From positions 51,019 through 115,018 of the forward strand of contig CAZRGC010000001.1 of the NCBI GenBank assembly GCA_964599625.1: a DNA stretch of 64,000 nucleotides, in the 5' to 3' direction. Below the pieces are notes generated by a model, which was given only the letters and a program-made list of their open reading frames with translations, had not been told where the DNA came from and did no database searches. A program made the position numbers and the translations under genes. How positions within the stretch are numbered: the stretch's first letter is position 1; every line of letters starts with the position of its first letter. The DNA comes from an uncultured Gammaproteobacteria bacterium. Its GTDB lineage: Bacteria; Patescibacteriota; Microgenomatia; UBA8517. Below, piece after piece: positions 1,923 to 57,303 of this stretch.

Positions 1923-2531
1923 ATGTTTGGAGTAAAAATACTCGAGGAAAAAAAATCTTCTAAAAACGGGCAGCTCAAAGTTGTTAAAACACTCTTTTCC
2001 AAACCTTACATTCAGGCCCAGGGGCTTACTCAATCGGGGGGGATTGTAGAAACAATATGGAAAGGCGCATTGGGAAAAGTGAAGCTGAAGAAAGTTAGAA
2101 CATGTTTGATTTTGGGTTATGGAGGTGGGACCGTGGCACGGCTTATTGGACGCAAATGGCCATATGCCAAGATAACGGGTGTAGACAACGACTCGGACAT
2201 TGTAAATCTGGGCCAAAAATATCTGGAATCTTTCAAAAAAGCAGATGTGTACATTAAAGATGCGGAAGAATTTTTGAAAGTGAATAGAGATAAATATGAC
2301 CTAATTATTGTTGATTTGTATAAGGGGGCAAACCTTCCCGCTAAATTTAAAACCGAAGCATTTTATAAACTGGTTGCCGGGAGGCTTTCGGCGGGTGGAA
2401 TTGCTGTATTTAATAGTTTGAGTCTAAGGAAGATGTCGGAGGAGAATATAGGGCCCGTTTTGGAAAAAGTGTTTGGTAAAATTCAAATTTTCAGGCCAAT
2501 TGTGAATCTTGTTTATATTTGCTCCAACTAG
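1923..2531 (+). CDS. spermidine-synthase-like SAM-dependent methyltransferase-fold protein
   Basis: GYGGGTVAR glycine-rich SAM motif, VTGVDNDSDIV, and YDLIIVDLY acidic motif typical of short PABS/spermine-synthase-like proteins. Confidence 0.5.
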   Translation: MFGVKILEEKKSSKNGQLKVVKTLFSKPYIQAQGLTQSGGIVETIWKGALGKVKLKKVRTCLILGYGGGTVARLIGRKWPYAKITGVDNDSDIVNLGQKYLESFKKADVYIKDAEEFLKVNRDKYDLIIVDLYKGANLPAKFKTEAFYKLVAGRLSAGGIAVFNSLSLRKMSEENIGPVLEKVFGKIQIFRPIVNLVYICSN

Positions 2532-2583
2532 TTGTTGACAAGTTTATTAGTTAGTGTTTATAATACAATTACTCTAATTAAAT

Positions 2584-3249
2584 ATGGAAATTAAAAGAAG
2601 TGAACTGAATTTTGCAGTTTTGGCAACGGACATTGCAGTGCTAACTTTGGACTCAGGGAAATTAAAAGTTTTAACGGTCGAAGCTGAATCCGTAAATTTT
2701 AAAGGGCAACCGGCGCTTCCCGGGGGTTTGGTTGATGTTTCGGAGTCTTCGTTGATTGCGGCAAAAAGAATACTTCAGAAATATTTGAGATCAACTGATT
2801 TTTACACAGAACAACTTTTTACGTTTGACGATCCAAAGCGAGATCCCGCAGGGCGGGTTGTCTCGGTAGCTTACCTTATGCTCGTGCCATGGAACCAGGC
2901 AAAGGAAATAACAACGGGTGCGGCCCGTTGGGTTACTTGCGACAACCTGCCCAAAATGGCCTATGATCACAATAAGGTTACTAAAGCTGCGGTGGCGCGG
3001 TTGAAAGGCAAACTTACCTACACAAATATTGTATTTGGACTAATGCCTCAAGAATTTACATTGACCGAACTTCAGGAAACGTATGAGAACATTCTCCAAA
3101 AAAGCATGGATAAAAGGAATTTTAGGAAGAAGATAACCTTGCTGGGTATTTTGAAAGAATTATCAAAGAACCGCAAGGGTAACGCTAATCGACCTGCTAA
3201 GTTGTTTGTTTTTGGTTCCAAGAAGCTTGAAGAGGTGGAAATCTTGTAA
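2584..3249 (+). CDS. NUDIX-family protein with NrtR-like C-terminal winged-helix region
   Basis: Degenerate Nudix box LPGGLVDVSESSLIAAKRILQKYL followed by a C-terminal domain resembling the NrtR DNA-binding module (LTELQETYENIL). The hydrolase motif is not canonical. Confidence 0.5.
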   Translation: MEIKRSELNFAVLATDIAVLTLDSGKLKVLTVEAESVNFKGQPALPGGLVDVSESSLIAAKRILQKYLRSTDFYTEQLFTFDDPKRDPAGRVVSVAYLMLVPWNQAKEITTGAARWVTCDNLPKMAYDHNKVTKAAVARLKGKLTYTNIVFGLMPQEFTLTELQETYENILQKSMDKRNFRKKITLLGILKELSKNRKGNANRPAKLFVFGSKKLEEVEIL

Positions 3250-3511
3250 TTTAAAAAAACTATAAGAATATTTTTTGATTACCAAAAATAACAATATCCA
3301 AAAATTGAACTTTTTACTGAACTCAATTTTTATCTAACTGCGATCAACAGATTGCAATAATCTAAAAACTATAGTATTATTCCAGACGTGAATTTGGGTA
3401 TAAATTTCTGAAGCCTCTTACTCTGATTTGAGGGCTGAAACAGAGCTTTGACTGTCAAAACTCTGGACAGCTTTTAATGCTCATTGACATTCAAAAATTT
3501 GGAAAGGGAAA

Positions 3512-4279
3512 GTGCCCATGTTTACAGACATTCAGATACGTACTGCACAGATCATCGGAAGGATGCACCTTACCGAGGGACTCAACATGCAGGACGTCCT
3601 GCACATGAGTTTTGCTGATGTGGGACCCAAAAGCGCTGTTCATGGCGTAATCTGTGACGGTTGTTCGCGAGACGCGAATCAACGACCGCTTCACAGCGAG
3701 GTTGGTGCTAGGCTTGGAGGGGACTTTCTGAGAGACGAAACCCAGAGGCTTTTGCTTCGCGGTGTGCCTATCAGGAATATTCCCCCGATTCTGCACAGAG
3801 GACTGATCAACTATGTTCGAAGACAGGCCGATACGATGCCGTTCAGGGATGCAAAATCCCAGATCCAGTTCATTGTGGACAAATTCTTGTTCACAACGGT
3901 TGGATTTATTCGGAATCAAACCGAAACCCTTGTTTACTACCAGGGAGACGGAGTTATCGTCATCAACGACGAACGGACCATAATCGACCAGAATGATCAC
4001 CCGACATACATCGGCTATCATGCAATCAGGCGCGAGTGGCTTCCCAAGGAAGTATCAAAACTTCCCGAAGGATTTACTACGCTTGTATTTCCCAACGACA
4101 CACTCGAAAAAATGGCGATCGCATCGGACTCGCTCGGCAAAGAACCTGATTTTTTTGATCAGCTCTGGGGATACAAAAACCCCATGGGTCTGCAAAGAAA
4201 GGTGAATGCCTGGTCTTTAAACGATCACAAGTTCGCTGACGATTTGTCAATAATAACCGTGGAGAAAGTGGCTCAATAA
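3512..4279 (+). CDS. PP2C-like (SpoIIE-type) protein phosphatase
   Basis: VHGVICDGCS corresponds to the metal-binding motif AVADGMGG. GDGVIVINDE corresponds to the LCSDGL motif. C-terminal ADDLSIITVEKV corresponds to the terminal DDiTvvvv motif. Divergent, so family membership needs an HMM. Confidence 0.5.
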   Translation: MPMFTDIQIRTAQIIGRMHLTEGLNMQDVLHMSFADVGPKSAVHGVICDGCSRDANQRPLHSEVGARLGGDFLRDETQRLLLRGVPIRNIPPILHRGLINYVRRQADTMPFRDAKSQIQFIVDKFLFTTVGFIRNQTETLVYYQGDGVIVINDERTIIDQNDHPTYIGYHAIRREWLPKEVSKLPEGFTTLVFPNDTLEKMAIASDSLGKEPDFFDQLWGYKNPMGLQRKVNAWSLNDHKFADDLSIITVEKVAQ

Positions 4280-4291
4280 TCGGAGGTTTAA

Positions 4292-6205
4292 ATGCGAGTT
4301 TTTATCGGCAACAATGCCGTCACTCTCGATAAACGGACCTTCAAGGGAGCCGGCGGCGAGGGTGCTGTTCACAAGATTTTACACAACGGACATGCGACAG
4401 GTCTGAAGGTTTATGAAACCCCAACACGGGAACGTGCGGAGAAGCTTATGGCTTTTTTCAAACGTGCCCCGAGGTTCACAAACCGGGTGATTGCGCCGCA
4501 GGAACTGGTGTTCAATAGTGCAGGGACTGCCGTTGGTTATACCTACGACCCCTCACACTACCCAATTGGCTTCACGATGCCTTTTGTGGATGGAAACTTT
4601 GCGGAACTGAAACAGCTTTCAAACAAAAAGTTCCGTAAAAGCTACCGCATTAGTACGCGTGATGTTGCGTTGGTTTTTCTTGATGGGATTCCAACACTTA
4701 GCAAAGTGGTTCACTCTCAGGGCTTTGTGGTCGGCGACCTGAGTGATGCGAACGAGATCACAATCAACAACCAGATGTTTTTTTGGGATGTTGACGCTTG
4801 GCAGTTTGACGGATTTCCGTGTCCTGTGGCAACACGAGACTTTGTTGATCCGGCGCTTTACGGCGTTGATTTTTCCAAGAAACCGTCTTTCAACACAGGT
4901 AACGACTGGTATTCGTATGCCGTTCTCCTTTTTAAGAGTCTGCTTCTGGTTCATCCATACGGAGGAACACACAACAGAGTAGATGATCAGCTGGAAAGAG
5001 CGGCTCGCAAAATATCTGTTTTTGACAAAAATGTCGTATATCCTGTAATCGGTATTCATCCCGACATTCTGACTGACGACCTTCATCACGTTTTTTATCA
5101 GTATTTTACCGAAGGTCAAAGAATGCCTTTTCCCGAAAAAACTTTGTCAGATTATCTTGATTCTCTGCGCGAGTGCACATCTTGCGGTACATATTTCCCG
5201 GGAGGCCGTGGAACATGTCCTGTGTGTAGTGCAAAAACGATGGTTGTTATTCAAAAACCGTCTACCTCCGCAAAAGATCTGGATATCTATGAGGTTATAA
5301 GGGTCAATGGCGATGTGCTTGCCAACGCAGTTATTGGCGATCAGGCACGTTTGCTGGTTAATGAAAACGGAAAGATCGTCTATTATGCGAAAGACCTTCG
5401 AAGTAAGACGTTCCCTGGAGTTCGTCGTGAACTTTTCCGTCACATACCCGGCTCAAAGTTCGAGATCGGTTCGGAGCATGTATATGTGAATCAGCCAAAA
5501 AGCGAAGAAATCCTTGTTTACGAGATTGCAACCGGAAAACTGGTGGGCAAGCTCACAACGGAGATTTTTGCTCCCGTAAGACGGGCTTCCTTCAGGGCAT
5601 CTGCATCTCATTTGTATCGCATTGACGGCAACGAACTCAAATTCGGCCGGCTTCGTGGAAATAGTTTTGAGGAGCAGAAGCTTAGGAATGTAGTTGATGA
5701 CCAAACCTGGTTTTGGGTGGAAGATAACTCCGACACCCCTTACGTTTTTGGTTTATTCCAGGTTCTCAAGCAACAAATGTTCTGGATGGTAAAAGATGGG
5801 AGACATTATGACGTACAAATTCCTGAACTCGAGATGGGAGAAGCAGTTCTCGATCTTGCGGTAAGGTTTTCAAGTCAGGGTGTATACCTTCTTAGGAAGA
5901 CTCAGCTTAACGGTATTAACTACGTAAGGCGCGAGATGGTGGACTCAAGCGGAAAGGTGATTTTCACCGACCGTATGGAGGAATCCAAATTGCCCAACCC
6001 CGATATCCATAACATAACCTATTCAACAGGTTTGGCTCTCCACGCTACGGATAAGGGTGTCTTAAACGAAAACGTTAAGACTGGGGCAACGAAGCTTTTC
6101 ACAAGCACCGAAGGCTTTGTTGATAGTGGAGATTCGCTTTTGCGATATGGTGCCTCGATCCTTGCAATCAAACAGGACCGAGTATTGATGATTTCACCCA
6201 AATAA
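4292..6205 (+). CDS. atypical protein-kinase-like protein with central CxxC zinc ribbon and about 300-aa beta-rich C-terminal region
   Basis: Glycine loop GAGGEGAV, putative beta3 Lys in TGLKVYE, catalytic-loop-like VVGDLSDANE (D-L-x-x-x-N), and DFG-like DVDAWQF. Zinc ribbon CTSCGTYF...CPVCS. Confidence 0.5.
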   Translation: MRVFIGNNAVTLDKRTFKGAGGEGAVHKILHNGHATGLKVYETPTRERAEKLMAFFKRAPRFTNRVIAPQELVFNSAGTAVGYTYDPSHYPIGFTMPFVDGNFAELKQLSNKKFRKSYRISTRDVALVFLDGIPTLSKVVHSQGFVVGDLSDANEITINNQMFFWDVDAWQFDGFPCPVATRDFVDPALYGVDFSKKPSFNTGNDWYSYAVLLFKSLLLVHPYGGTHNRVDDQLERAARKISVFDKNVVYPVIGIHPDILTDDLHHVFYQYFTEGQRMPFPEKTLSDYLDSLRECTSCGTYFPGGRGTCPVCSAKTMVVIQKPSTSAKDLDIYEVIRVNGDVLANAVIGDQARLLVNENGKIVYYAKDLRSKTFPGVRRELFRHIPGSKFEIGSEHVYVNQPKSEEILVYEIATGKLVGKLTTEIFAPVRRASFRASASHLYRIDGNELKFGRLRGNSFEEQKLRNVVDDQTWFWVEDNSDTPYVFGLFQVLKQQMFWMVKDGRHYDVQIPELEMGEAVLDLAVRFSSQGVYLLRKTQLNGINYVRREMVDSSGKVIFTDRMEESKLPNPDIHNITYSTGLALHATDKGVLNENVKTGATKLFTSTEGFVDSGDSLLRYGASILAIKQDRVLMISPK

Positions 6206-6222
6206 ACCCAAGGAGACTCGAA

Positions 6223-7149
6223 ATGAGTACACCGTTGTTCAATGCAAGTGGTCTGGGAACACTCCGCAAACCCGACCTTGCAAAATATGCCGCTCTCGGC
6301 AAAAATGCGGGACTGAAACCGGCTAGTGAAGACACATTCCGCCGCGTTTTGGTTTTGGTGGACATGCAGAACGACTTTATGGATCAACCATTGGCCGCTC
6401 TTCCTGTTCCCGGCGCTCTTGGCGACGTCAAGCGCGTGATCGAATACATCTACCGCAACCCGGAGAAGATCACAAAGATCGTCGCAAGTCTGGATACACA
6501 CGTCAAACGCATGATCTTCCACCCTGAATGGTGGATCAATGTGGAGACCAAGGAGCACCCGACTCCATACACCGAGATCACTTTGGCTGACATCAAGGCC
6601 GGTAAGTGGCAGGCGCTCGTTGACCCCATCTGGTCCGTTCGCTATGTCGCGTATCTCGAAACCCATGCACAGAAGCATCTCATGATCTGGCCATATCACT
6701 GCATCGTTGGCACTCAAGGTCAGGAACTTGTTCCCGAACTTGCAGAAGCCATCGCTTGGCACTCGGCCGCGCGCGGCACCACCGCTGATTTCATTGAGAA
6801 GGGGACCGACCCCAGGACCGAACACTACGGCATCTGGAAAGCGGAAATGGAAGATCCAAAAGATCCTTCAACTCTCATGAATGTCACCGCTCTTGATATG
6901 ATTTCTTCGTTCGATGAAATCAACATGGCGGGTGAAGCCTGGTCACATTGTGTGGATGCAACAATGCGGCAAGAAGTCGGCTATTTTTCCAATCAGCCCG
7001 ACGTCATCCGCAAGATCCGTTTTATGATCGACTGCACGAGCCCGGTGGCACATCCCACTATCGATTTCCGTGCCATGGCTCAGGCGTCGCTCGACAAAAT
7101 GGTCGCACAGGGTGTAGTTGTCATCAACTCAACTGACCCGGTCAAGTAA
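6223..7149 (+). CDS. isochorismatase-family (cysteine hydrolase / nicotinamidase-like) protein
   Basis: VLVLVDMQNDF (DxQxDF) N-terminal motif and AGEAWSHCV catalytic-Cys motif of the isochorismatase/PncA/YcaC family. Confidence 0.65.
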   Translation: MSTPLFNASGLGTLRKPDLAKYAALGKNAGLKPASEDTFRRVLVLVDMQNDFMDQPLAALPVPGALGDVKRVIEYIYRNPEKITKIVASLDTHVKRMIFHPEWWINVETKEHPTPYTEITLADIKAGKWQALVDPIWSVRYVAYLETHAQKHLMIWPYHCIVGTQGQELVPELAEAIAWHSAARGTTADFIEKGTDPRTEHYGIWKAEMEDPKDPSTLMNVTALDMISSFDEINMAGEAWSHCVDATMRQEVGYFSNQPDVIRKIRFMIDCTSPVAHPTIDFRAMAQASLDKMVAQGVVVINSTDPVK

Positions 7150-7189
7150 TACCAACCTTTTTCAAGATCAAATTTCAAGGAGATTTGCA

Positions 7190-7948
7190 ATGTCTCAATC
7201 AAAACAACCATCGGAAGCCATTGTTGGTGCAGGGCTTTCCGTAGAAGCAACCAACATTCTTGTCAAGAATGTGAACACGAAAACGATGGCCGGCGCAGGT
7301 GGTACTGATGTCGACGATCTGGTGACAGATGTCGTTACCCTCTCGCTTCTCATTGTGGACGAAAGCTATTCGATGTCTGACGACGAGACTCAAGTCAAGT
7401 CCGAAATCGATGCCAGTATCGAGGCGATCAAGGATAGCTCTCAGCGGGACGAGATCCTTCTGTCCATTTGGGCGTTTAATTCGCGCACCCGCCTGATTCA
7501 CAGCTACCTCAGCCTGGACCTGGTGGAACCGTTCACGGATTATCATCCGCAGAACAACACGGCGCTTTACGACTCGATCATCGACGGTCTGACCGGCCTG
7601 GTCAAGTATGAGGCAGAACTCAAAGCCCAAGGCTGGCGCGTCAAGCTCAACGTAGGCGTGGTCACCGATGGTGACGACAACGAGAGCCGCCATACCGCCG
7701 CGCAAGTCAAGACTGTGGTCGAGGAACTCCGCCGCAAGCGAGAGAACGCTACGTTCGCCCTTATTGCCCTCGGCAATGACGTGGACGAGACCGTACTCGC
7801 CGCGAGCATGGGTTTCCCCGATCCCAAACGATTCGATAAGACCCCTCAGGGCCGCCGCCGCGCGTTCGGTACCTGGAGTTCGAGTGTCATCAAGACCTCC
7901 CAAACCCAGATCGGCACCGCCAGTGGCAGTCTGTTCCAGGCACCCTAA
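7190..7948 (+). CDS. von Willebrand factor A domain protein (TerY-like)
   Basis: MIDAS motif LLIVDESYSMSD (DxSxS) plus downstream T and D residues (VVTDGDDNES). Start moved to the ATG at 7190 because AAGGAG sits 8 nt upstream; the ORF track begins at 7118. Confidence 0.75.
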   Translation: MSQSKQPSEAIVGAGLSVEATNILVKNVNTKTMAGAGGTDVDDLVTDVVTLSLLIVDESYSMSDDETQVKSEIDASIEAIKDSSQRDEILLSIWAFNSRTRLIHSYLSLDLVEPFTDYHPQNNTALYDSIIDGLTGLVKYEAELKAQGWRVKLNVGVVTDGDDNESRHTAAQVKTVVEELRRKRENATFALIALGNDVDETVLAASMGFPDPKRFDKTPQGRRRAFGTWSSSVIKTSQTQIGTASGSLFQAP

Positions 7949-7990
7949 TTTGCAGGGCAGTCCTGTGAGAAAAAAGTAAGTGTAAGTACA

Positions 7991-8042
7991 AAAGGAGAAC
8001 AATTCTTTCGCCGCAAGCGACTGAAGGGTTCTCCTTTTTTTG
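7991..8042 (+). terminator. rho-independent terminator ending the high-GC operon
   Basis: AAGGAGAAC pairs with GTTCTCCTT around a long loop, followed by a TTTTTTT run. Confidence 0.5.
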
Positions 8043-8059
8043 TGGTGTAAAATTCACTT

Positions 8060-8896
8060 ATGACCGAAAAAGCTTATGAACACGACTTGAATTTTGCCCA
8101 AGCTTGTGCAAACTATCTTCACGACATGTATCTAGAGGGCGTTTTAACCACAAACGATTTAGAAAGATTCGGTGATAAAGAGATCGACGAGCTGGTACTT
8201 AGAATCCACAAGGGAGGATTTCCTCCACACACAAACTACATGAGATGGGAACATGGGCAAAAACTTAAAGCGATTTTTCATTCGGAAACTCTTCCAAAAG
8301 TTGAAAGGCCTGATACTTTTGAGATAACAAAGTTTGTAGAAAATTTTTTGGATCATCAAAGACAACGCGGCTTTGATGAAATAACTGGTGCTATTGTTTA
8401 CGGAAGTCTTGTAGATGAAACCAGATTTGTTAGAGAAGGAAGTGATCTGGATATATTATTACTTGCAAATACACATTCAGGAAGTTTGTTTCTGGAAAAT
8501 GCATGGTTACAAGATCCCGATTCAGAAGTTAGTTCGGGGGATATTGAAATAAGGTCAAGATATGAGAATTGGAAACAAGATGCGTATAAATTTGCAAAAT
8601 ATGTGTTTCCTCAATTTCAAAACACACCACTCGAAATTGGACACATCTACAACCGCGACATGTTTGAGTATGCACTTTCTCCTGATTCCAAAATGGAAGT
8701 ACCTTGGTGGCTCTATTCACAAGGGATTTATACAATAGGTGGGTTTGAGGATATGTCGGAAGAAAAAGTTGATGCCGAAATTGAAGCAGCACTAAAATCT
8801 AAATGGGTTAAAGAATCAAAACTAAAAACAATCGAGGATATCAAAAAAAATCTGACCACTTTTTTTGGAAGAAACGACAGGTATAAGAAAAAATAA
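8060..8896 (+). CDS. nucleotidyltransferase-domain protein (Pol-beta superfamily)
   Basis: GAIVYGSLVDETRFVREGSDLDILLL matches the minimal NTase signature hG[GS]...DhDh. Confidence 0.5.
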   Translation: MTEKAYEHDLNFAQACANYLHDMYLEGVLTTNDLERFGDKEIDELVLRIHKGGFPPHTNYMRWEHGQKLKAIFHSETLPKVERPDTFEITKFVENFLDHQRQRGFDEITGAIVYGSLVDETRFVREGSDLDILLLANTHSGSLFLENAWLQDPDSEVSSGDIEIRSRYENWKQDAYKFAKYVFPQFQNTPLEIGHIYNRDMFEYALSPDSKMEVPWWLYSQGIYTIGGFEDMSEEKVDAEIEAALKSKWVKESKLKTIEDIKKNLTTFFGRNDRYKKK

Positions 8897-8939: not shown

Positions 8940-11705
8940 GTGCTAAATATATTCTCAAAACTTCTTGATCTTAATCAACGCGAAGTGGACCGTATTAAAA
9001 AGATTATTGTAAAAATAAACGATTTGGAGGGTAAAACAAAAAAACTCAAAGATGCGGACTTTGCCAAAAAAACTCAAGAATTTAAAAAACGTTTGGAGAA
9101 AGGCGAGACTTTGGAGGAAATTTTGCCGGAGGCGTATGCGTTGGTACGCGAGGCTTCTTATAGAGTCCTTGGTAAAAGACATTATGACGTTCAGTTGATT
9201 GCGGCAGTTGCACTTTTTGAAGGACGTGTTGCAGAACAAAAAACAGGTGAAGGTAAAACTTTGTCTGCAGTTCCCGCGCTTTACCTTAGGGCCTTAACAG
9301 GGCAGGGGGTGCATTTGGTAACAGTAAACGATTATTTGGCGAGACGTGACGCCGGTTGGAATGCCCCCATCTTCCACATGTTGGGAATGACAACTGGATC
9401 AATTATTCAAGAAACTAAATCGTTTGTTTACGATCCCAAGTTTTCTGATTCAAGTCACGGGGACGAAAGGCTTGCGCATTTGAGACCGGCCGAGAGATCT
9501 GAAGCATACAAGTGTGACATTTTGTACGGAACAAACAATGAATTTGGTTTTGACTACCTTCGCGACAACATGGTTAACTCGTTGGCCGAAATGGTGCAGC
9601 GTGGACACTATTTTGCAATTGTAGACGAGGTGGACTCGGTGCTTATCGACGAAGCAAGAACCCCTTTAATTATTTCCGCACCCGACACGGAGCCAACCAA
9701 AAAATATTATGATTTTGCGGCACTTGTAGAAAAGTTAAACCCAGATACCGATTTTAAGATAGACGAAAAAGCCAAAAGTGCGACTCTTACAGAGATGGGA
9801 ATAACCAGAGTAGAAAAACTTTTGGGTGTAGATAATCTTTACGAAAAAGATTTCGACAGCATTCACCATATAGAAAATGCACTTCGGGCAAAAGCAATTT
9901 ATCTAAGGGATCGGGACTACGTTGTCAAAGATAACCAAGTAACAATTGTTGATGAATTTACAGGACGTCTTATGGTTGGCAGGCGTTGGAGTGACGGACT
10001 CCATCAGGCAGTGGAAGCCAAAGAAAATGTAACAATTCAACAGGAAAGTAGAACCCTTGCAACAATCTCTTTCCAAAATTATTTCAGGCTTTATACACAC
10101 CTTGCGGGTATGACGGGTACCGCCTCCACAGAGTCGGAAGAATTCAGAAAAATTTACAAACTGGAAGTAGTGGTTATCCCCACACATAGAGAAATGGTAA
10201 GAAAAGACAAAGGAGATATGATCTATAAAACTCTAAGGGGAAAATACGGCGCAATTGTAGAAGAAATCGCAGAACGTCACGAAGTGGGTCAGCCTGTTCT
10301 TGTCGGTACTACCTCTATCGAGAAAAACGAGATAATTTCGGAATATCTCAAACGAAAGAAAATTCCACACAATGTTCTTAATGCCAAAAATCATGAGAAA
10401 GAAGCGGAAATAATTGCTGAAGCAGGCAAGCCTGGTGCGGTAACTGTTGCCACCAACATGGCGGGGCGTGGGGTGGACATTGTTTTAGGCGGCGCTATGC
10501 CGGATAGACGTGCGGGTGAAACCAACGAAAAGTATGAGTCCTCGAAAGATTATAAAAGTTGGAAAAAAGTTCACGACCAAGTCCTTGATGCAGGAGGCCT
10601 TTTTGTTATTGGAACAGAACGCCATGAAGCAAGACGTGTAGATAATCAGCTCAGGGGTAGATCGGGTCGCCAGGGGGACTCCGGGACTTCCCGATTTTAT
10701 CTTTCACTCGAGGATGATCTTATGAGAATTTTCGGAGGAGAACAAATAAGCGGGATTATGGACAGACTTAACCTGCCCGAAGATCAACCGATAGAAAACG
10801 CCCTCATCAGTAGAGCAATTGAACAGGCCCAAGTAAAAGTTGAAGGTTTCCATTTTGATATACGAAAAAGACTTGTTGAATTTGACGACGTTGCCAACCA
10901 GCAAAGAGATATTGTTTATAAACTCCGAAAAAGAATACTTGAGTCAACAGATGTAAAAGATGAAGTTGTAGAAAAGTTGAACCACCAACTGGAAAAAACA
11001 TTAATGATGGCAACAAGTGCAGAGACCGAAACAGTTGACGATGATCAGTTGGCTGTTGGACTTGCAGAGATGGTGCCTTTTGATGACGAATCTCTAAAAA
11101 GAATTAAGGGTGAAATAAAAATGCAAAAAAACAAATTGGAATTTTTGCAAAATGTTTTAAAAGATATTTATACAGCACGCGAGAAAGATTTGGGGGATAA
11201 AGTAATGAGAGAAGTGGAAAAGTATGCGTATTTGGGTGCGATAGATCATTTGTGGATGGATCACATAGACCACATAGATGACCTTAGGGAAGGGGTAACT
11301 CTTAGGGCCTACGGGCAACGCGACCCCTTGATCGAATTCAAAAACGAAGCCTACAGACTTTTTGAAAACCTCATAGATAAAATGGACGAAGAGCTTTCAC
11401 ACAGAATTTTCCGTATTGGGGTTGCCACACCGCAATCCGAAATACCACTTAATTTGGCAAGAGAAAATTTGGATAAATCTGACCTTACAGGTCTTTCCGG
11501 GAATGCCGATAAAACTGCAAAGTCAGGAGCTAAAGCTTTTGATAATAAAAAAATTTCAAGAAATGACCCTTGTTGGTGCGGAAGCGGAAAAAAGTGGAAG
11601 AAATGCCACATAAATAGGGAACCGCAAACGGCACAGGAACGTGAGGCCTATAACCTATTTTTCAATAATCCAGACGAATGGGATCGAAGGTTTGGGAAGA
11701 AGTAG
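8940..11705 (+). CDS. secA: protein translocase subunit SecA
   Basis: DEAD-motor motifs (GEGKTL, DEVDSVLIDEARTPLIIS, TNMAGRGVDIVLGG, RGRSGRQGD) and C-terminal zinc finger CWCGSGKKWKKCH. GTG start. Confidence 0.95.
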   Translation: MLNIFSKLLDLNQREVDRIKKIIVKINDLEGKTKKLKDADFAKKTQEFKKRLEKGETLEEILPEAYALVREASYRVLGKRHYDVQLIAAVALFEGRVAEQKTGEGKTLSAVPALYLRALTGQGVHLVTVNDYLARRDAGWNAPIFHMLGMTTGSIIQETKSFVYDPKFSDSSHGDERLAHLRPAERSEAYKCDILYGTNNEFGFDYLRDNMVNSLAEMVQRGHYFAIVDEVDSVLIDEARTPLIISAPDTEPTKKYYDFAALVEKLNPDTDFKIDEKAKSATLTEMGITRVEKLLGVDNLYEKDFDSIHHIENALRAKAIYLRDRDYVVKDNQVTIVDEFTGRLMVGRRWSDGLHQAVEAKENVTIQQESRTLATISFQNYFRLYTHLAGMTGTASTESEEFRKIYKLEVVVIPTHREMVRKDKGDMIYKTLRGKYGAIVEEIAERHEVGQPVLVGTTSIEKNEIISEYLKRKKIPHNVLNAKNHEKEAEIIAEAGKPGAVTVATNMAGRGVDIVLGGAMPDRRAGETNEKYESSKDYKSWKKVHDQVLDAGGLFVIGTERHEARRVDNQLRGRSGRQGDSGTSRFYLSLEDDLMRIFGGEQISGIMDRLNLPEDQPIENALISRAIEQAQVKVEGFHFDIRKRLVEFDDVANQQRDIVYKLRKRILESTDVKDEVVEKLNHQLEKTLMMATSAETETVDDDQLAVGLAEMVPFDDESLKRIKGEIKMQKNKLEFLQNVLKDIYTAREKDLGDKVMREVEKYAYLGAIDHLWMDHIDHIDDLREGVTLRAYGQRDPLIEFKNEAYRLFENLIDKMDEELSHRIFRIGVATPQSEIPLNLARENLDKSDLTGLSGNADKTAKSGAKAFDNKKISRNDPCWCGSGKKWKKCHINREPQTAQEREAYNLFFNNPDEWDRRFGKK

Positions 11706-11707
11706 GG

Positions 11708-13276
11708 TTAGAATCGCCAGTCTATCTCAATCTTGCCGTTACCCGCTCTTATCTCTTTAATGATTGCCCGAAGGAAGTGTTTTTTCTCTTCTAAGTTGGC
11801 ACTGTCCCATAAGATATCGAAGTCTTCCAATGATTTAGTAAATTTCTCCAATTCTTTGCGACGTTCGTTTACCAGTTGAAGCTTAGTTTTATATTCATCG
11901 GTAACCACATGGTATTTATTTTCTTCCTCGTCTAAACGCTTTATATTGGCTGCGTACACCTCAATTGAATCTATACCCGCCTCATAGGCTTCTTTTACCC
12001 GTTCACGGCGTCTATCGATGTCAGCTAGGTGTTTAGCCGCTAGGTTGGCGTCAGCTTCGAGGTTTTCGGTAATAGTGATGTTCTTATCCAATATCAGTCG
12101 TTCTCGGGCCGTAGGATTGTTTACAAGGTTCCTAATTTGGTTCAAAACGAACTCTTCTAGTCTAGTTGCACTCATTATCCGTCGTTGGCATATTCCTGTG
12201 TATTTATAGCCACCACACAAATATTCGTATGTTATGGTGTCGTTCCATTTAGGATTCTTTTTCTTTCGATTGTGATGACGGGTTAAATAGGTTACACCCG
12301 ATCCACAACGGATACATTTAGCTATGCCCGTTAATAGCCCACGGCTCATCCTTGCCCGTCCTTTTTGGGAATTTCCTCGTATCTTTTTCTCTTTTTGGGC
12401 TAATTTGAAGATTTCCTCAGTAATAATTGGGGCATGTTGTCCGTTTTCGACAATACCCTTATGATCCCTTAGTTTTCGTTGCTTGTTTTTGGCATAGTCG
12501 GCATGCCTCCATCCCCAAAGTACCTTTCCCGTATAGGTTTGGTTTTGTAGCATGTATTTGACTGCCTGCGCACGCCAATATGGGCCTCTAGGGGGTTTAA
12601 CCCCTTTTGTAGTTAGTTCAAACGCAATGCTTTGGGTACCTTTCCCTTTGATGTATTCGTCAAATATCCATCTGACGATTATTGCTTTTTCTTCATCAAT
12701 CTCAATTTTTCTCTGTACTTTGTTCTTTTCGTCGATCCAACGGACAATAACATAGCCGTAGGGGACGTTGTTTGGTATTTTTCCTGCCTTAGCCACTGCC
12801 AATTTACCCATTGTCATTCTGCGTCTGATCTTGTTGCGTTCGATTTCGGCCATCGTATCGCTAAAACCCTCTACCATAATGCCTAAATCGTCGTCTGTGG
12901 GATCGTAAAGTTTTGGATCTCGGGGTTCTACGGGAGTAGCTACGGAGTATGTTTGGATGAACATTTTTTTCAAGTCATCCCTAGCCTTGGTAGCATACGA
13001 TTTGTTACGGGCAAAACGATCAAAATCTTTGACGACTACTAGATCGAATTTGTAATCTGACGCGTCCTGCATCATTCTCTGGAAACCTAATCGTTCCTCG
13101 ATTAAATGTCCGCTTTCTACATCTTGATAGGGATCGGCCACTAATTCCCAGCCGTGATCGGCTATAGCCTTTTTACAAACTCGAATCTGATCTTGAATTG
13201 ATTCTTTCCCGTCGGCTTGTTCTTTTGTGCTAACACGGGCGTATATGACGGCCCGAATCTTAAATTTATTTTCCAT
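11708..13276 (-). CDS. large serine recombinase (integrase)
   Basis: N-terminal resolvase catalytic domain AVIYARVSTKEQ, then a recombinase domain and a Cys-rich zinc-ribbon region (CIRCGSG...C...C), then a C-terminal coiled coil. Confidence 0.85.
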   Translation of the reverse strand: MENKFKIRAVIYARVSTKEQADGKESIQDQIRVCKKAIADHGWELVADPYQDVESGHLIEERLGFQRMMQDASDYKFDLVVVKDFDRFARNKSYATKARDDLKKMFIQTYSVATPVEPRDPKLYDPTDDDLGIMVEGFSDTMAEIERNKIRRRMTMGKLAVAKAGKIPNNVPYGYVIVRWIDEKNKVQRKIEIDEEKAIIVRWIFDEYIKGKGTQSIAFELTTKGVKPPRGPYWRAQAVKYMLQNQTYTGKVLWGWRHADYAKNKQRKLRDHKGIVENGQHAPIITEEIFKLAQKEKKIRGNSQKGRARMSRGLLTGIAKCIRCGSGVTYLTRHHNRKKKNPKWNDTITYEYLCGGYKYTGICQRRIMSATRLEEFVLNQIRNLVNNPTARERLILDKNITITENLEADANLAAKHLADIDRRRERVKEAYEAGIDSIEVYAANIKRLDEEENKYHVVTDEYKTKLQLVNERRKELEKFTKSLEDFDILWDSANLEEKKHFLRAIIKEIRAGNGKIEIDWRF

Positions 13277-13284
13277 ATTTCTTC

Positions 13285-13512
13285 TTATTGTTTATCAAAT
13301 TTGATCCCAATTGATTCTAAGTATGCTAAAACATCTTGTTTCCTAAAACGTCTGTCGTTTCTTGAGCCAACACGAACAGCAACAAATTTTTTATCATCAT
13401 CCCATTTACGAAGTGTCCAGGGATTTACCCCTAGAATCCTAGCGGTTTGTTCTAGTGTTAGTAGTAATCCCCATGTGTCGGGGTTTGATGGTGAAAATGG
13501 TACTGTTGTCAT
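13285..13512 (-). CDS. excisionase/AlpA-family HTH DNA-binding protein (candidate recombination directionality factor)
   Basis: 75 aa. LTLEQTARILGVNPWTLRKW matches the excisionase-family HTH. Clear paralog of the gene at 27796-27993. Confidence 0.6.
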   Translation of the reverse strand: MTTVPFSPSNPDTWGLLLTLEQTARILGVNPWTLRKWDDDKKFVAVRVGSRNDRRFRKQDVLAYLESIGIKFDKQ

Positions 13513-13568
13513 ACAAGTAAAACTAATTTATACTAAGTTAACATAAAGAAATTTAAGAAACAAGCAGA

Positions 13569-14366
13569 ATGAAAAATGTAATAGACGACGCTAGGACATT
13601 GGTTTCTAAATTGGAGAAATCCATATCACCCAGTAATGAATGGAAAATTGTAAGTGTTGCAAAAACTTCAAAAAAGATAAAGTTGCCTAGATCACTGGCA
13701 AAACTGGATTGGTTTCAGTACTCTCACGAGGATACGTTGGATATATTAGTGAAACACGGTGTAATTAAGGGCGTAACGTATGATTGGTGGTTTTTGGGAT
13801 TTAAGAGTATAGATTCTCTGTGGGGTAGAAATAGGCCTGAGGAATTGGCTGTGGATGATGGGATAGTTCATATTGCTCAAAAAGTGAGACTCATTAGGAA
13901 AGATCAGATAATCGAATACTATTATGTAATTCCCTCTGATGATCGCGGCCCACAACCTCCTGGTTTGGCATCCATATTGGTAAATAGGGAACAACTGAAA
14001 AATTTCAAGAAAACACTAGATAGTTTGAAGGTTATGTTCAATGACAACGATAGTTGTTTGGAATTTTTGGGCGAAAGTCTTCAATTCAAAAAAATGGAGA
14101 AAGAGTGTGTAAAATTGTTGATTAAAAATTTGAATAAACCCGTTTCATATAAAGACTTTTATGAAGTCAGAGATGGAAGTTACACTACAAAGGCAATAGA
14201 GCAGGGAAAAAGTGATGCAGATGAACCGTCTCGGGCCATGTTCAAAAGAATTAGGGCAAAAATCTACAAAAATAAAAAATTGAAGCAAGTCTTGCTTCTA
14301 AGTGAATCAGTTGGTTTCAAAATGAAAGTAAATCGAGACGCCTTAGAAAAATTTCTTCTGATCTGA
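13569..14366 (+). CDS. hypothetical protein (island cargo)
   Basis: 265-aa ORF with no recognisable motif. Confidence 0.4.
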   Translation: MKNVIDDARTLVSKLEKSISPSNEWKIVSVAKTSKKIKLPRSLAKLDWFQYSHEDTLDILVKHGVIKGVTYDWWFLGFKSIDSLWGRNRPEELAVDDGIVHIAQKVRLIRKDQIIEYYYVIPSDDRGPQPPGLASILVNREQLKNFKKTLDSLKVMFNDNDSCLEFLGESLQFKKMEKECVKLLIKNLNKPVSYKDFYEVRDGSYTTKAIEQGKSDADEPSRAMFKRIRAKIYKNKKLKQVLLLSESVGFKMKVNRDALEKFLLI

Positions 14367-14456
14367 TAAAAGGATCCTCTTTTAAGTTTCGTCCCAATCC
14401 GTCCTAGTTGTGTATCTTTTTCCGTCCCCAAATCTGGGGATACCCTAGAGACTGAT

Positions 14457-14654
14457 ATGGAAAATCAGTCTAGTAATTCCACTAGCAAAGATAAGCGTGA
14501 TCGGTTAATTGGCAATGCCGTAGAGGCATACGCCACACTATTCCGTTCCGTGTTGGACAGAACGCAACGGGAGTACATGTCCAGGCAAATAAAAAAGGGT
14601 ATACAAGCAAAAAAATTAAAAGATGAATATGAAAAACACAGAGTACAAGTCTAA
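14457..14654 (+). CDS. small hypothetical protein (phage-like)
   Basis: 65-aa basic ORF that overlaps the next ORF. Confidence 0.25.
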   Translation: MENQSSNSTSKDKRDRLIGNAVEAYATLFRSVLDRTQREYMSRQIKKGIQAKKLKDEYEKHRVQV

Positions 14655-14871
14655 CGATCTATATCAAGCGGTAGCTCTCAAAACAGCAGGAATGCCGTTA
14701 CTTCGGCTGGAAAAGTCCTCGGGACACTTCTACATTTTCGTGTTCGATGATCCAAATAACAAAGCAGAAGAGATTTTGTCGCAATTTTGGGCCAAGACAT
14801 TACAAGTAGATGCAAAAACGTTTGTTGAAAATATAAATGAAGCTAAGGCACGCATTCATCAAGGCCTATGA
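14623..14871 (+). CDS. small hypothetical protein (phage-like)
   Basis: 82-aa ORF overlapping both neighbours in a compact phage-like arrangement. Confidence 0.25.
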   Translation: MNMKNTEYKSNDLYQAVALKTAGMPLLRLEKSSGHFYIFVFDDPNNKAEEILSQFWAKTLQVDAKTFVENINEAKARIHQGL

Positions 14872-15470
14872 AAAAACAAAAACCCTATCAGAACAAAAGA
14901 CAACTAAAACAAGCCTACGAGAAGTTTGGATCGACAAGAAGGGCAGCGAGGTTTTTTGGAGTTACAAACGGAACGATAATCCGTTGGATGAGACATTTTC
15001 ATCTTCCCAGAATTCCCAAACTATATTTATATGACAATCACTCTGGTTGGGGACGCCTAGCTGAAAAATATATTAGCAGACATCCATATTTTCGGAAGTA
15101 TTTCCGAGACGTTGGCGATTTCGATGACAAATCCAAATATGATGCGTTATGGTACTGGGATCGTGTCAACGTTAAATCTACACACAGCAAAGGAAAAAAG
15201 TGTTTCAGGATAAAGAAGAAAAAACACGACGTGGCGTATTACATTTGCTGTGTATACGATGACAAAATTGATCCGTTAATTCCCATCGAAGTTTTTATTA
15301 TTCCCGCTTCGGACGCCCCTAGAACGACTATTACAGTTTCACTAAAAACATCTTGTAAGTATGCAAAGTTTAGGTTGAGTCTACAACGGGGCAAGGCGTT
15401 TTCGATCAAGGACGAGATCAAATATAACGAGCAATTCAAGAATATATATAAGTACCCGAAGTTGAAATAA
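14868..15470 (+). CDS. hypothetical protein with N-terminal helix-turn-helix
   Basis: RRAARFFGVTNGTIIRWMRH is an HTH-like segment; the rest is unknown. Confidence 0.4.
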   Translation: MKKQKPYQNKRQLKQAYEKFGSTRRAARFFGVTNGTIIRWMRHFHLPRIPKLYLYDNHSGWGRLAEKYISRHPYFRKYFRDVGDFDDKSKYDALWYWDRVNVKSTHSKGKKCFRIKKKKHDVAYYICCVYDDKIDPLIPIEVFIIPASDAPRTTITVSLKTSCKYAKFRLSLQRGKAFSIKDEIKYNEQFKNIYKYPKLK

Positions 15471-15821
15471 CGTCAGAGAGAATTTGGAAAATTTTACCGA
15501 GGCATTTTAGCCTGAGGATACCTGGCGAGGGTAGCCCTGCAAGTCCGCAGTGATCGAGAAGCACTATAATAGCCGATTGCAGATAGCCCACCTGATTGAA
15601 GCGAGGGTATACGAAATATAACACAAGGGAAGACGTTGGGAAGAATGAAAAAATGTCTGAGACGATCTAGTGTTACGCACCATGCACTCGTCCCTTCTGC
15701 ATGTATCATCGGCAGTTTAGGTTAGATGGTTGGCTTAAACCTTCCGAGAGAAAACGGAGAAAAAGGTTGAAAATACCCTTTTTTCCTTCCTATCGCTCGG
15801 GTTCCGAAATATACATAATTT

Positions 15822-17111
15822 TCAATTACTGTAAAACCAATCCCATTCTGGGTTATCTACTTCTAAAATCTTACTCTTTAGCATTTTATACACTCCATCC
15901 TCTTTGATTGTTTGCCATGTGCCTTCGTAGTAATGGTAATCTACCTCGCCATCATTCCAATTTTTCGTTGAAAACTTAACAAATACTGTGTCGTCGGAGT
16001 TTTCAAATGGTTCGGTGTGAATGACATCAACATCTAGTATATCCGTGAACCTGTTTGTCCATTCCTCATAGTTGGTTTTCTTTAGATAATCGGTGCTTAG
16101 TAGATTGAATCCGTCCTGCATTCTTCTCGCCTTAAGATATGTGTAGAATGCCTCAACGGCTTTTTCTGGTGACTCTGAGGGATCTACTTGTATTTTGGTT
16201 ATATTTTGATCGGTAAAACTAGGAACAGCCGATCTTGCCCAGTCGCCGTCAATAAAAAGCGATAAACCCGCAAGACTAAGCGTGTTAATTCCTACGACTT
16301 GGCCACACTGATCTAATAGTGGCCCGCCACTCATGCCCTGAACCAAGCTAATATCCGTTTGAATGTAAGCCACAGGCATTTGTTTAGATTTTCTAAAATC
16401 CACAAATCTACCCTTAACAACAGTTGCATTGCCAACCAGATCAGTCCCCAAAGGATAGCCCGCAGCAATAAGCGGTTCATCAGCATGTAAGACTACACGT
16501 TCGGGTAAAGGCAAAACCATGTCTGGATATATATTGTCGGTAAATAGCACTGCCATATCCTCATCCTTGTTACCAATAATCTTATTAGGTGTGACAAAAT
16601 TCCCATCTGGGAAAATGATCTTGGGGCTTGGCTCGTCAGCTATAACATGGAAGTTAGTAATAACCTGATCGGGGGCAATAAAAAATCCTGTTCCTTCTGA
16701 ATACCCTCCAACTACTCGAACTACTGATTTTTGGATGGTATCTCTGGCTCCGATTGAACACAAAAATTTTCCATACCAGCCGTACTGCGTTCGCAGATAA
16801 TCGGCGATGACGAATAGGGAGGCTACCATGTAAGCAACAACACCAATGACAAACAATGATTTTAAGAAATTCTTTAGGCTTTTGAAGGGGTAAACGAAAG
16901 TTTCAAAAAAGATTTTGATCAGGGCAATAATAAATTTGATTGTGAATTTTACGATGTAGTAGGTGGTATAGGTTACAAGTTTGATGGGGAATTGATAAAT
17001 GGGGAATAGTAAGCGTTTGAAATAGGCCTTTAGCCGAGTTGTAGTATTTTTATAAGTATCCGAAATTTTTCGAGATAGCCTATCGAATTGTTTTTCAAAT
17101 ATGCTTATCAT
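15822..17111 (-). CDS. membrane-anchored trypsin-like (S1/DegP-type) serine protease
   Basis: N-terminal hydrophobic segments. Catalytic triad context: His in VITNFHVIA, Asp in EDMAVLF, Ser in GMSGGPL. About 130-aa C-terminal extra domain. Confidence 0.7.
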   Translation of the reverse strand: MISIFEKQFDRLSRKISDTYKNTTTRLKAYFKRLLFPIYQFPIKLVTYTTYYIVKFTIKFIIALIKIFFETFVYPFKSLKNFLKSLFVIGVVAYMVASLFVIADYLRTQYGWYGKFLCSIGARDTIQKSVVRVVGGYSEGTGFFIAPDQVITNFHVIADEPSPKIIFPDGNFVTPNKIIGNKDEDMAVLFTDNIYPDMVLPLPERVVLHADEPLIAAGYPLGTDLVGNATVVKGRFVDFRKSKQMPVAYIQTDISLVQGMSGGPLLDQCGQVVGINTLSLAGLSLFIDGDWARSAVPSFTDQNITKIQVDPSESPEKAVEAFYTYLKARRMQDGFNLLSTDYLKKTNYEEWTNRFTDILDVDVIHTEPFENSDDTVFVKFSTKNWNDGEVDYHYYEGTWQTIKEDGVYKMLKSKILEVDNPEWDWFYSN

Positions 17112-19591: not shown

Positions 19592-19593
19592 AT

Positions 19594-20322
19594 TTATTTA
19601 ACCTTTTTGATAAAACCTAAATATTTATCTACATCCAAAGCAGGAACAGAGCCAAGTTGTCGAAGTTGTTCAATTAGTTTGAGTAAAAAGAACGCTAGTA
19701 TTGTGGCTCCTTTTTGTTCAAATATTTCTTTCTCGTTTACAATCTTTATTCCGTAGCTTAAGCAAACGACAAAAGATAATGCCGAACCTAATTTAACGTT
19801 CTCGTATGAGGGCTTACTTCCGTGTTCTTTGGTTAATATCCCTCCAAATATATTAAATGGTTCCTTTTTGTTTTTTCCGAGAATATGAGCGAAGCTGGCA
19901 GACGTTTTTTTCAATTCTTGAACACTTTTAAGTTTTTTGATTGCATATTCAAGGTTCGACTTGTTTAATTGTTGTTTGACTTCAAAAACGGCATAAACTC
20001 CCTCCGATGGTATATAAACAACATTTTCTCCCCGAAAAATAAATGGGGTGAAATGCCTATCATAAATAATGATGTCAATTTGTTCACTTATATTTCCTTT
20101 ATGATCTACCACAAAACCATTGTCCACGCTGTACCTTTCTGGTAAATAATTTCGTAGGAGTCCTATCCAATTCAGTTCCGTTTCGTTGCCCTTTGCCGAT
20201 GGATGATATATTTCATCAATCTTGCTCGACAATTTAAGTCTCATTTCTTCATCGAGAGCATTAAATAGTTTTTGCATGTTGATTTTTTTAGACATAGTTT
20301 TTACCAAACAATTTGATTCCAA
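19594..20322 (-). CDS. PD-(D/E)xK restriction-endonuclease-fold protein, NucC-like candidate effector
   Basis: EQIDIIIYD ... AVFEVKQ gives a D ... E-x-K arrangement. Size about 233-242 aa. The real start is probably the in-frame ATG at 20295 (MSKKINMQ), which removes the 22-nt overlap with the upstream NTase gene. The NucC resemblance is from memory of that family, not a search. Confidence 0.4.
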   Translation of the reverse strand: MESNCLVKTMSKKINMQKLFNALDEEMRLKLSSKIDEIYHPSAKGNETELNWIGLLRNYLPERYSVDNGFVVDHKGNISEQIDIIIYDRHFTPFIFRGENVVYIPSEGVYAVFEVKQQLNKSNLEYAIKKLKSVQELKKTSASFAHILGKNKKEPFNIFGGILTKEHGSKPSYENVKLGSALSFVVCLSYGIKIVNEKEIFEQKGATILAFFLLKLIEQLRQLGSVPALDVDKYLGFIKKVK

Positions 20323-21074
20323 TTTGAGTTTTTTATCGCTTCTCTTGCTTTATTTTTTACAGCACTTTTTTCTGTTTGTGTTAATAGATCAGAAAGGATA
20401 TTTCCCGAGTTGGCAGGATCGACTAAATAGGAATCTAAAGGATTATCGTTGTATTTAGCCAGTTCCGTTAAAACATGCCACGCATTGTTTCCTAGTTTGT
20501 CAATTCCAGTAGGGTAAAATTTCAGGATGTTAGTAACTATTAAGTATTCAAGATAGATTGATGGAAATTCAAGTTTGTTAAGTTCTCGCCACACCTTAAG
20601 GATTTTTATTTCATTCGTCCTACCCGAATTAGAAATGTCGTCTATATGTTTTTGAATATTAGTCTGTTTCCTCGTGTCTTGCTTAGAAACATATAGCCAA
20701 TGATCGTTAGTGTATCCAGGTTGTTTCCGTGCAGGTGTAACGTCTACCATTAAGCCGTTAAGGTTTAATCTTATGGAAACATTTTGTTTTCTAACACCAC
20801 TATAAATACTACTGATTTTTGAATATAGTGATTCATAAATCCCTTTTAATCCACCAGTATTTTCATTGCAATTGCTAGTTAATGAAACGAGATAATCTAC
20901 ATCTGACGCAATTGATATAGCTGTACCTTTAGCTCGTGATCCTGAGTCCAAAATATCTAAATAGCAAGTATTTGCCCATGTCTTTAGAATTGATTTCAGA
21001 GTGACAATTGAACTCGAATAGGGTGATAAGTTTCGTGCCTGGTATTTTAATAAAATTTGTTCAAGATATGTCAT
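20301..21074 (-). CDS. CD-NTase/SMODS-like nucleotidyltransferase
   Basis: SGSRAKGTAISIASDVDYLV matches GS...GT...SDhDh. Downstream LMVDVTPAR matches the third-Asp DVhPA motif of the OAS/cGAS/CD-NTase families. Confidence 0.5.
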   Translation of the reverse strand: MTYLEQILLKYQARNLSPYSSSIVTLKSILKTWANTCYLDILDSGSRAKGTAISIASDVDYLVSLTSNCNENTGGLKGIYESLYSKISSIYSGVRKQNVSIRLNLNGLMVDVTPARKQPGYTNDHWLYVSKQDTRKQTNIQKHIDDISNSGRTNEIKILKVWRELNKLEFPSIYLEYLIVTNILKFYPTGIDKLGNNAWHVLTELAKYNDNPLDSYLVDPANSGNILSDLLTQTEKSAVKNKAREAIKNSNWNQIVW

Positions 21075-21075
21075 A

Positions 21076-27773: not shown

Positions 27774-27795
27774 TTTCTTAATTCTCTTTTTTAAT

Positions 27796-27993
27796 TTACA
27801 CCTTAGGGTGTCTAGATATATATGCCTCTATGTCCGCCTTTCTATATCGACGATCTCCAACACCTCTACGTGTACCAATTCTTACCGCTTTTAGGATTCC
27901 TTGTCTATCCCAACGCCTAAGTGTTTGCGGTTTAACATTCAGGATTTTTGCTGCCTGATTTAATGTTAGTAGTTCCTCTAGTTCTGAATTCAT
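27796..27993 (-). CDS. excisionase/AlpA-family HTH DNA-binding protein (paralog of 13285-13512)
   Basis: LTLNQAAKILNVKPQTLRRWDRQGILKAVRIGTRR aligns residue by residue with the other HTH protein. It is the first gene of the 12-kb minus-strand operon. Confidence 0.6.
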   Translation of the reverse strand: MNSELEELLTLNQAAKILNVKPQTLRRWDRQGILKAVRIGTRRGVGDRRYRKADIEAYISRHPKV

Positions 27994-28376: not shown

Positions 28377-28413
28377 TTTCAAAAAGTGCCATTTTCCCAA
28401 GAAGGCCCCTTAA

Positions 28414-56345: not shown

Positions 56346-56369
56346 GCATTACTCTCAAGGAGAAAATCA

Positions 56370-57290: not shown

Positions 57291-57303
57291 GGAGAAGAGA
57301 ACA

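Follow-up and report, generated by a model that had tools for sequence, protein, structure and literature searches.

A nicotinamidase cassette with a TerY-P-like kinase, phosphatase and vWA triad, probably belonging to an NrtR-type regulon, in bacteria and huge phages

A contig from an uncultured bacterium (GCA_964599625.1, CAZRGC010000001.1, positions 51,019-115,018) carries a cassette of four genes encoding a PP2C-like phosphatase, a kinase, a nicotinamidase-like enzyme and a von Willebrand factor A (vWA) protein, preceded by the gene of a regulator of the NrtR family. The whole stretch of 64,000 nucleotides that was analysed is referred to as the window, and its coordinates are used throughout. 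Triads of a vWA protein, a PP2C phosphatase and a kinase are common in bacteria, E. coli included. Neither a physiological role nor a substrate of these triads has, to our knowledge, been established, the sole functional lead being the protection against phages reported for some variants. The new element described here is a triad of the TerY-P/YegLKI type which is fixed to an enzyme of nicotinamide adenine dinucleotide (NAD) salvage and to what is probably an NrtR regulon.

The four genes, which an initial annotation had recognised as co-directional, were recovered on the same strand from open reading frame (ORF) translations with short gaps between them, and the gene calls of sister contigs agree (Table 1). 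Within the span proposed earlier (3491-8045) the genes stand, but the start does not, as a spurious ORF on the reverse strand ends at 3491. The operon-final terminator was also found; it consists of a hairpin at 7990-8034 followed by U7 (dG -25.6 kcal/mol, z -3.9). The guanine and cytosine (GC) profile is not uniform, and the cassette is elevated as claimed, with a GC content of 0.495 against 0.409 in the remaining window; the rise (49.5% against 41%) is nevertheless smaller than the 55-65% over a 30-40% backbone reported at first. The individual genes range from 0.46 (kinase) and 0.48 (PP2C) to 0.53 (nicotinamidase) and 0.56 (vWA), with a maximum of 0.58 in 500-bp intervals, and the GC of their third codon positions (GC3) is 0.47-0.67, compared with 0.29-0.43 for adjacent genes. 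The cassette value is equalled in 26 of 596 intervals of 4.4 kb (100-bp steps), and those with the highest GC fall in a separate, unrelated patch at ~54-58.5 kb.

Table 1. Features of the cassette and of the region upstream of it, in window coordinates
Feature	Position	Strand	Remarks
Sigma-70 promoter of nrtR	2535-2564	+	TTGACA, 18 nt, TATAAT; 12/12 matches
NrtR-type operator TAGTGTTTATAATACAATT (predicted)	2552-2570	.	2 mismatches to TAGTGT-N7-ACACTA
NrtR-family repressor (Nudix-like effector domain and winged helix)	2584-3249	+	Pfam and PDB matches
25-bp near-perfect palindrome CAGAGCTTTGAC-T-GTCAAAACTCTG	3441-3465	.	In nrtR-PP2C spacer
PP2C-like Ser/Thr phosphatase (PphC homologue)	3518-4279	+	Alternative GTG start at 3512
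Kinase protein, 637 aa	4292-6205	+	Hanks-type domain, Zn ribbon, beta-propeller
Hanks-type Ser/Thr kinase domain	4292-5146	+	Residues 1-285; conserved motifs, hhalign to YegI
Zn ribbon	5165-5236	+	Residues 292-315; C295, C298, C309, C312
C-terminal beta-propeller (predicted)	5264-6205	+	Residues 325-637; AF2 model, Foldseek
PncA-type nicotinamidase (predicted), 308 aa	6223-7149	+	N-terminal extension and ~50-residue insertion
YegL/TerY-like vWA protein	7190-7948	+	252 aa by sister-contig gene calls
Intrinsic terminator, hairpin and U7	7990-8041	+	Closes the cassette

The third gene had been attributed to the isochorismatase/nicotinamidase family, and invariant residues and fold confirm this attribution, the single sequence scoring below the family cut-offs (PF00857 Isochorismatase, 17.1 against 27; NCBIfam PRK11609, 26.3 against 174). 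The Asp-Lys-Cys triad D47/K193/C243 is invariant in 23 sequences and 98-100% conserved in 50, and the metal site D91/H93/H159, aligned to 1ilw, is likewise invariant. Across the family this PncA-specific site (D-x-H...WPxH) is accompanied by an equally invariant ATxHC-like cysteine motif. The AlphaFold2 (AF2) model of the protein has a pLDDT (predicted local distance difference test) score of 94.7, and its 11 best fold matches in the PDB, with E down to 9.5e-14, are all nicotinamidase/pyrazinamidase structures, among them the nicotinamidases 2wta, 3v8e, 1ilw and 3pl1; other isochorismatase-like hydrolases score behind. The fold, the catalytic triad and the Asp/His/His metal site are shared with these PncA/Pnc1 enzymes, from which the cassette protein differs in being ~100 residues longer, with a ~40-residue N-terminal extension and a ~50-residue insertion between the DxH and WPxH motifs, and in the location of its gene directly upstream of a vWA gene in both gene orders described below. 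Sequence and structural model point to a PncA-type nicotinamidase with all catalytic and metal residues intact, which is predicted to be active.

The subfamily of this enzyme numbers 1466 representatives at E≤1e-30 and is also present in other architectures. Some members have an N-terminal fusion to an unannotated domain of ~250 aa (GRIIRG...DDPxR...RAFLYFxxHLRELYxGDGYT), tandem duplicates occur, and one protein of 1629 aa combines ankyrin and ion-transport channel-like regions with two C-terminal copies (unusual forms P0178, P0181, P0195, P0231, P0249, P0271, P0286, P0287; P0168, P0262; P0185).

The description of the second gene product as a kinase-like protein with a zinc ribbon holds at the level of the family and not in single-sequence Pfam searches, where no kinase match was obtained, though homologues carry PF00069. 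Among the candidates scored, 300 clusters belong to the kinase family at E≤0.001; the best 120 of these 300 are nearly all full-length, and PF00069 is found in many of them. In the family alignment the motifs G19xGGEG, K39, D149, N154, D166/D168, D205-W206 and R236 are invariant or nearly so, D166/D168 occupying the DFG position, and the activation-loop residue T181 is also conserved. The four cysteines of the zinc ribbon are invariant across the family. The Glu of motif III is absent, and E. coli YegI is reported to lack it too (bioRxiv 10.1101/819920). In the AF2 model (pLDDT 87.8) residues 325-637 are all-beta, and the best PDB matches in Foldseek are LRRK2, which combines kinase and WD40 domains, and beta-propellers, among them WD40 proteins and the N-terminal domain of clathrin.

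The PP2C assignment of the first gene, in turn, is borne out by a Pfam match barely over the cut-off (PP2C_2, PF13672, 24.6 bits against 24) and by residues invariant in its family (D26, D47-G48, G143-D144-G145, D204, D241-D242), in which the metal-binding Asp residues are kept. The small vWA protein reaches only 15.4 for VWA_2 against a cut-off of 27; its metal-ion-dependent adhesion site (MIDAS; D57-x-S-x-S61, T124, D160) is intact, as the initial annotation had noted, and invariant across the family. Furthermore, its Ser-rich C-terminal tail is conserved (R223, S230, S232), and the protein matches phrog_7371 (1.8e-14). When the profiles of PP2C, vWA and kinase were run against PDB sequences, no useful match emerged. 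The domain assignments are weak for single sequences and firm when family alignments, folds and profile-profile comparisons are taken together.

Comparison with hhalign relates the kinase family to YegI (99.4%, E 2e-21, in the kinase and zinc-ribbon region only), the PP2C family to PphC (97.6%, E 4e-12) and the vWA family to YegL (95%, E 3e-8); judged by these profile alignments, the three signalling proteins of the cassette are homologous to YegL-PphC-YegI of E. coli. The label "TerY-like" rests on this homology to YegL, because the Pfam vWA-TerF-like model matched only one of 21 members of the vWA family. Both YegI and PphC have enzymatic activity (bioRxiv 10.1101/819920). In PMC11090510, after Anantharaman 2012, the TerY-P triad is described as a TerY-like vWA protein, a PP2C phosphatase and a Ser/Thr kinase with a C-terminal zinc ribbon, found alongside Ter genes or systems for DNA restriction and processing. 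All three components, namely a vWA domain with its MIDAS, a PP2C and a kinase followed by a zinc ribbon, are present in the cassette. The designation as TerY-P-triad-like holds for homology and architecture; it is not borne out by the genomic context, in which no Ter or conflict genes were found, or by PADLOC, which identified no specific system and whose TerY-P models had no match among window proteins at E≤0.1 or among family members at E≤0.01, the kinases matching only generic kinase models (PD-T4-6, mad6, PglW).

The resemblance to these systems extends to the MIDAS, the metal site of the PP2C and the catalytic residues of the kinase, which are intact (K39 as in YegI), to the position of the zinc ribbon after the kinase, and to the order vWA-PP2C-kinase, which is kept in a permuted form of the cassette. 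In contrast to TerY-P and Yeg, the cassette has an obligatory fourth gene, the nicotinamidase, its kinase ends in a predicted beta-propeller, the C-terminal half of YegI remaining unaligned, and it is probably under the control of NrtR. Ter, McrBC/CoCoNuT or DNA-processing neighbours, unlike in TerY-P, were not found at cassette loci. The literature searched yielded no report in which NrtR is paired with PP2C or TerY with isochorismatase, and none linking nicotinamidase to vWA, PP2C and kinase together; a mention in the 2012 TerY-P paper is possible.

A scan of GTDB representative genomes provided 60 loci, in which the cassette genes were detected by iterative hidden Markov model searches over all ORFs. 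These loci belong to Patescibacteria (Woesebacteria, WWE3, Collierbacteria, Kuenenbacteria), Chloroflexota, Elusimicrobia, Riflebacteria, Myxococcota, Bdellovibrionota and others. The neighbourhoods inspected of homologues with 25-68% kinase identity all contain the four genes, which co-occur, among 63 non-redundant loci, in nearly every one with enough flanking sequence. Two gene orders are found, PP2C-kinase-nicotinamidase-vWA and nicotinamidase-vWA-PP2C-kinase, and in both the nicotinamidase-vWA and PP2C-kinase pairs stay adjacent. The invariance of these pairs suggests two interacting sub-modules. The hydrolase had been regarded as an insertion into a classical triad; it is instead a conserved core gene that, whichever the gene order, immediately precedes the vWA gene, both across ~60 loci and in the copies of huge phages. 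In one Microgenomates locus (L019, 6230-8881) PP2C and kinase are fused in a single ORF of 883 aa.

The viral copies were retrieved by tblastn of GenBank phage records. Three huge genomes labelled "uncultured phage", of 462-595 kb, carry the cassette (LR756500.1, L079; LR745208.1, L080; LR756511.1, L081), as does an unverified phage fragment (MT837596.1, L082) whose contig ends within the kinase. The phage copies have the order nicotinamidase-vWA-PP2C-kinase, and the three huge genomes have a local GC of 0.24, 0.56 and 0.42. One copy has nadE nearby, and another is flanked by a plain NUDIX gene. In IMG/VR, a pattern scan of the viral contigs for the kinase found nothing.

Clustering of flanking ORFs across loci revealed recurrent neighbours, the most frequent being pncB, which is present in eight non-redundant loci and additionally in L071 and L077, usually directly after the vWA gene and otherwise before nrtR, in several loci within the same operon. 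The other functionally annotated neighbours related to NAD are nadE, encoding NAD synthase (five loci), nadK (three) and NADAR (three); those unrelated to NAD are ABC transporters (six) and methyltransferases (four).

The regulator gene upstream of the cassette encodes a protein matching NrtR_WHD (PF21906, 7.7e-23) and NUDIX (PF00293), with a degenerate Nudix box according to the translation and the conservation table; its PDB matches include AraR (5bs6, 1e-28), NrtR (3gz5, 5e-17) and NadQ. The spacer of the predicted operator contains the -10 box of the nrtR promoter, and the site, the sole one of its kind in the window, is kept at equivalent positions in L007 (5456) and L015 (5463). A homologue of NrtR lies ≤7 kb from the cassette in 18 non-redundant loci of at least four phyla, and also in L076 and L077. 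Moreover, in 32 of the 45 loci with the standard gene order, the palindrome TAGTGT-N7-ACACTA, with ≤1 mismatch, occurs between -250 and +120 relative to the start of the cassette, where 0.007 would be expected per interval of that size. An operator of the same type is found in front of pncB in L071 and in front of nadK in L057 and L042, and a motif common to the cassette, pncB and nadK marks an NAD regulon in which the cassette is included.

These features can be set beside the NrtR regulons of NAD metabolism in Rodionov et al. 2008 (PMC2330246), in the main text of which the sites are described as palindromes with a GT-N7-AC core, overlapping the promoter or lying between promoter and start codon. 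A regulator with Nudix and winged-helix domains, a GT-N7-AC palindrome that commonly overlaps promoter elements, the operator in front of pncB and nadK, and the proximity of nadE to the cassette are common to both. Unlike the cassette, the regulons of that text hold metabolic, transport and pentose genes together with the uncharacterised nrtX-nrtY; a kinase-phosphatase-vWA triad within an NrtR regulon was found neither there nor in the other literature searched.

The reading that we consider probable as a whole is an NrtR-controlled operon for the salvage of nicotinamide and NAD, which includes a kinase-phosphatase-vWA triad and in which phosphorylation would gate the enzyme; this gating is much less certain. 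NAD consumption would generate a breakdown product that releases the repressor, and by analogy with characterised NrtR proteins this product may be ADP-ribose. The nicotinamidase would convert the released nicotinamide to nicotinate, feeding the Preiss-Handler route (PncB, NadD, NadE) to NAD. Kinase and phosphatase would gate this step post-translationally, the likeliest targets of phosphorylation being the Ser-rich vWA tail or the nicotinamidase, while the MIDAS site of the vWA protein may bind or release the enzyme and the propeller of the kinase may act as an input or docking module. Huge phages presumably carry the cassette to sustain NAD during infection. That the triad is a dedicated phosphorylation switch on the nicotinamidase, serving as conserved sensor and actuator of NAD turnover with which small-genome bacteria, Chloroflexota and huge phages would all regulate the clearance of nicotinamide and the recovery of NAD, is a tentative proposal that we hold to be possible and yet rather doubtful.

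Several observations weigh against a salvage operon of this kind. A search for pncB, nadE, nadK and NADAR in the window found none of them, and the best solved relative of the regulator is an arabinose sensor, AraR, rather than NrtR. The nicotinamidase is ~20% identical to solved PncA enzymes, in addition to scoring under the Pfam and NCBIfam cut-offs. The operator is present in none of the nine permuted loci of Anaerolineae type. In the window, motif scan and inspection found no operator between nrtR and the PP2C gene, so that control of the cassette rests on read-through of a spacer of 268 bp, and within this spacer sits an unexplained palindrome, CAGAGCTTTGAC-T-GTCAAAACTCTG.

As to the spacer itself, terminator-like sites were not found between nrtR and the PP2C gene. 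The palindrome may serve as a further operator or form a hairpin in the RNA; a relative with two mismatches lies inside nrtR (2667-2685), with 0.1 such sites expected by chance. A loosely conserved box, GCTCNTTRACAA (3478-3492 in the window), is located 25-85 nt upstream of the PP2C start in loci of Patescibacteria type, downstream of NrtR operators, and also appears in L007, L015, L016, L018, L019, L030, L042 and L059. The box has no match in Rfam, in which nothing reached the gathering threshold across the window and nothing was found at E≤1 in 2500-3560, so the spacer is not a known riboswitch.

An alternative explanation is that the cassette is a conflict system, either an anti-phage defence of TerY-P-like type or, in phages, a counter-defence, with the triad as sensor of infection and the nicotinamidase as effector; the enzyme would either starve NadV-type salvage by the phage of nicotinamide or restore NAD after attack by NADases. 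The homology of the triad to the TerY-P/YegLKI type speaks for it, as do the three huge phage genomes, the patchy phyletic spread and anomalous GC, the NADAR neighbours in three loci, and the TerY-P-like modules reported as stand-alone defence systems in PMC11090510 (citing Gao 2020), in which, according to the same paper, an OB fold replaces the zinc ribbon. Against these points stand the PADLOC results given above, the stable and syntenic position of the cassette in relatives, and an operator common to pncB and nadK, which indicates metabolic regulation. Ter, restriction or defence genes were found neither in the window flanks nor among the recurrent neighbours of the ~60 loci, and the recurrent annotated neighbours are NAD-biosynthetic or housekeeping genes rather than defence islands. 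We regard a conflict role as unlikely, and the Ter-linked stress or conflict setting of the initial annotation is not supported, the annotated neighbours being NAD genes besides ABC transporters and methyltransferases. Still less likely in our view is an enzyme acting on another amide, with a Nudix-type regulator that senses a ligand other than NAD-derived ones and NAD neighbours that reflect a broader regulon. The AraR match of the regulator would agree with this, together with the extension of ~40 and the insertion of ~50 residues relative to PncA, the scores under the family cut-offs, and the size of a subfamily whose other fusions include an ion-channel-like protein. The invariant PncA-specific metal site and ATxHC-like motif argue for nicotinamide instead, as do the eleven best folds and the frequency of pncB, which uses the product nicotinate and often shares the operon.

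The origin of the cassette bears on the explanation to which the initial annotation came closest, a recently acquired Ter-linked stress island in which a cysteine hydrolase unrelated to a classical TerY-P triad had been inserted. The triad architecture, the raised GC of the cassette and a GC3 of up to 0.67 would be in keeping with it. However, the hydrolase is present in almost all of the ~60 loci and in the phage copies, always beside the vWA gene, and Ter genes are missing from the flanks and neighbours examined. The synteny RarA-NrtR-cassette is common to Woesebacteria-like relatives with 57% kinase identity, and the cassette exceeds its flanks by 4 to 8 GC points in nearly all low-GC loci of Patescibacteria type, while most loci of Anaerolineae and Elusimicrobia show little or no excess. 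Synteny at such identity and the recurrence of the GC excess, which is a property of the cassette in low-GC hosts, argue against a recent arrival, and the recent insertion in the window lies elsewhere (11609-28380); a recently acquired Ter island is, accordingly, very improbable. An older transfer is plausible given the patchy phyletic spread and the phage copies, and the GC excess would fit either older transfers or a constraint on the composition of the cassette.

In the probable case of an NAD-salvage operon, a triad locked to one enzyme whose chemistry is known, and to a known regulator that responds to metabolites, would make direct tests possible, and NrtR regulons would be extended to signalling proteins. 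The cassette enzyme is the likely nicotinamidase of many Patescibacteria, and the copies in huge phages bear on the competition between phage and host over NAD. Should the more doubtful phosphorylation switch prove true, it would provide the first concrete physiological output for a widespread and functionally orphan triad, and would tie this triad into the phage-host contest over NAD.

Other features of the window can be described separately. Right after the cassette terminator, a gene at 8060-8896 (GC 0.367, GC3 0.29) has a weak match to Pol-beta nucleotidyltransferases; it was rejected as a member of the cassette, being found only in contigs of the same species. In the second GC-rich patch (54381-57990), where GC reaches 0.555, three ORFs run in the same direction; they encode 654, 306 and 228 aa and have no Pfam matches, and the middle one has a lipoprotein-like N-terminus. 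Their similar sizes led to their being tested as a paralogue of the cassette, to which they are unrelated, and ribosomal RNA was excluded by the lack of an Rfam match. Compared with the sister contig (L001), which is 96.5% identical, the window is longer by 16.8 kb (11609-28380). This stretch, of lower GC, is probably an integrated element specific to the strain. It begins at the 3' end of secA and carries, at that end, a large serine recombinase (11708-13276, reverse strand) and a small helix-turn-helix ORF (13285-13512).

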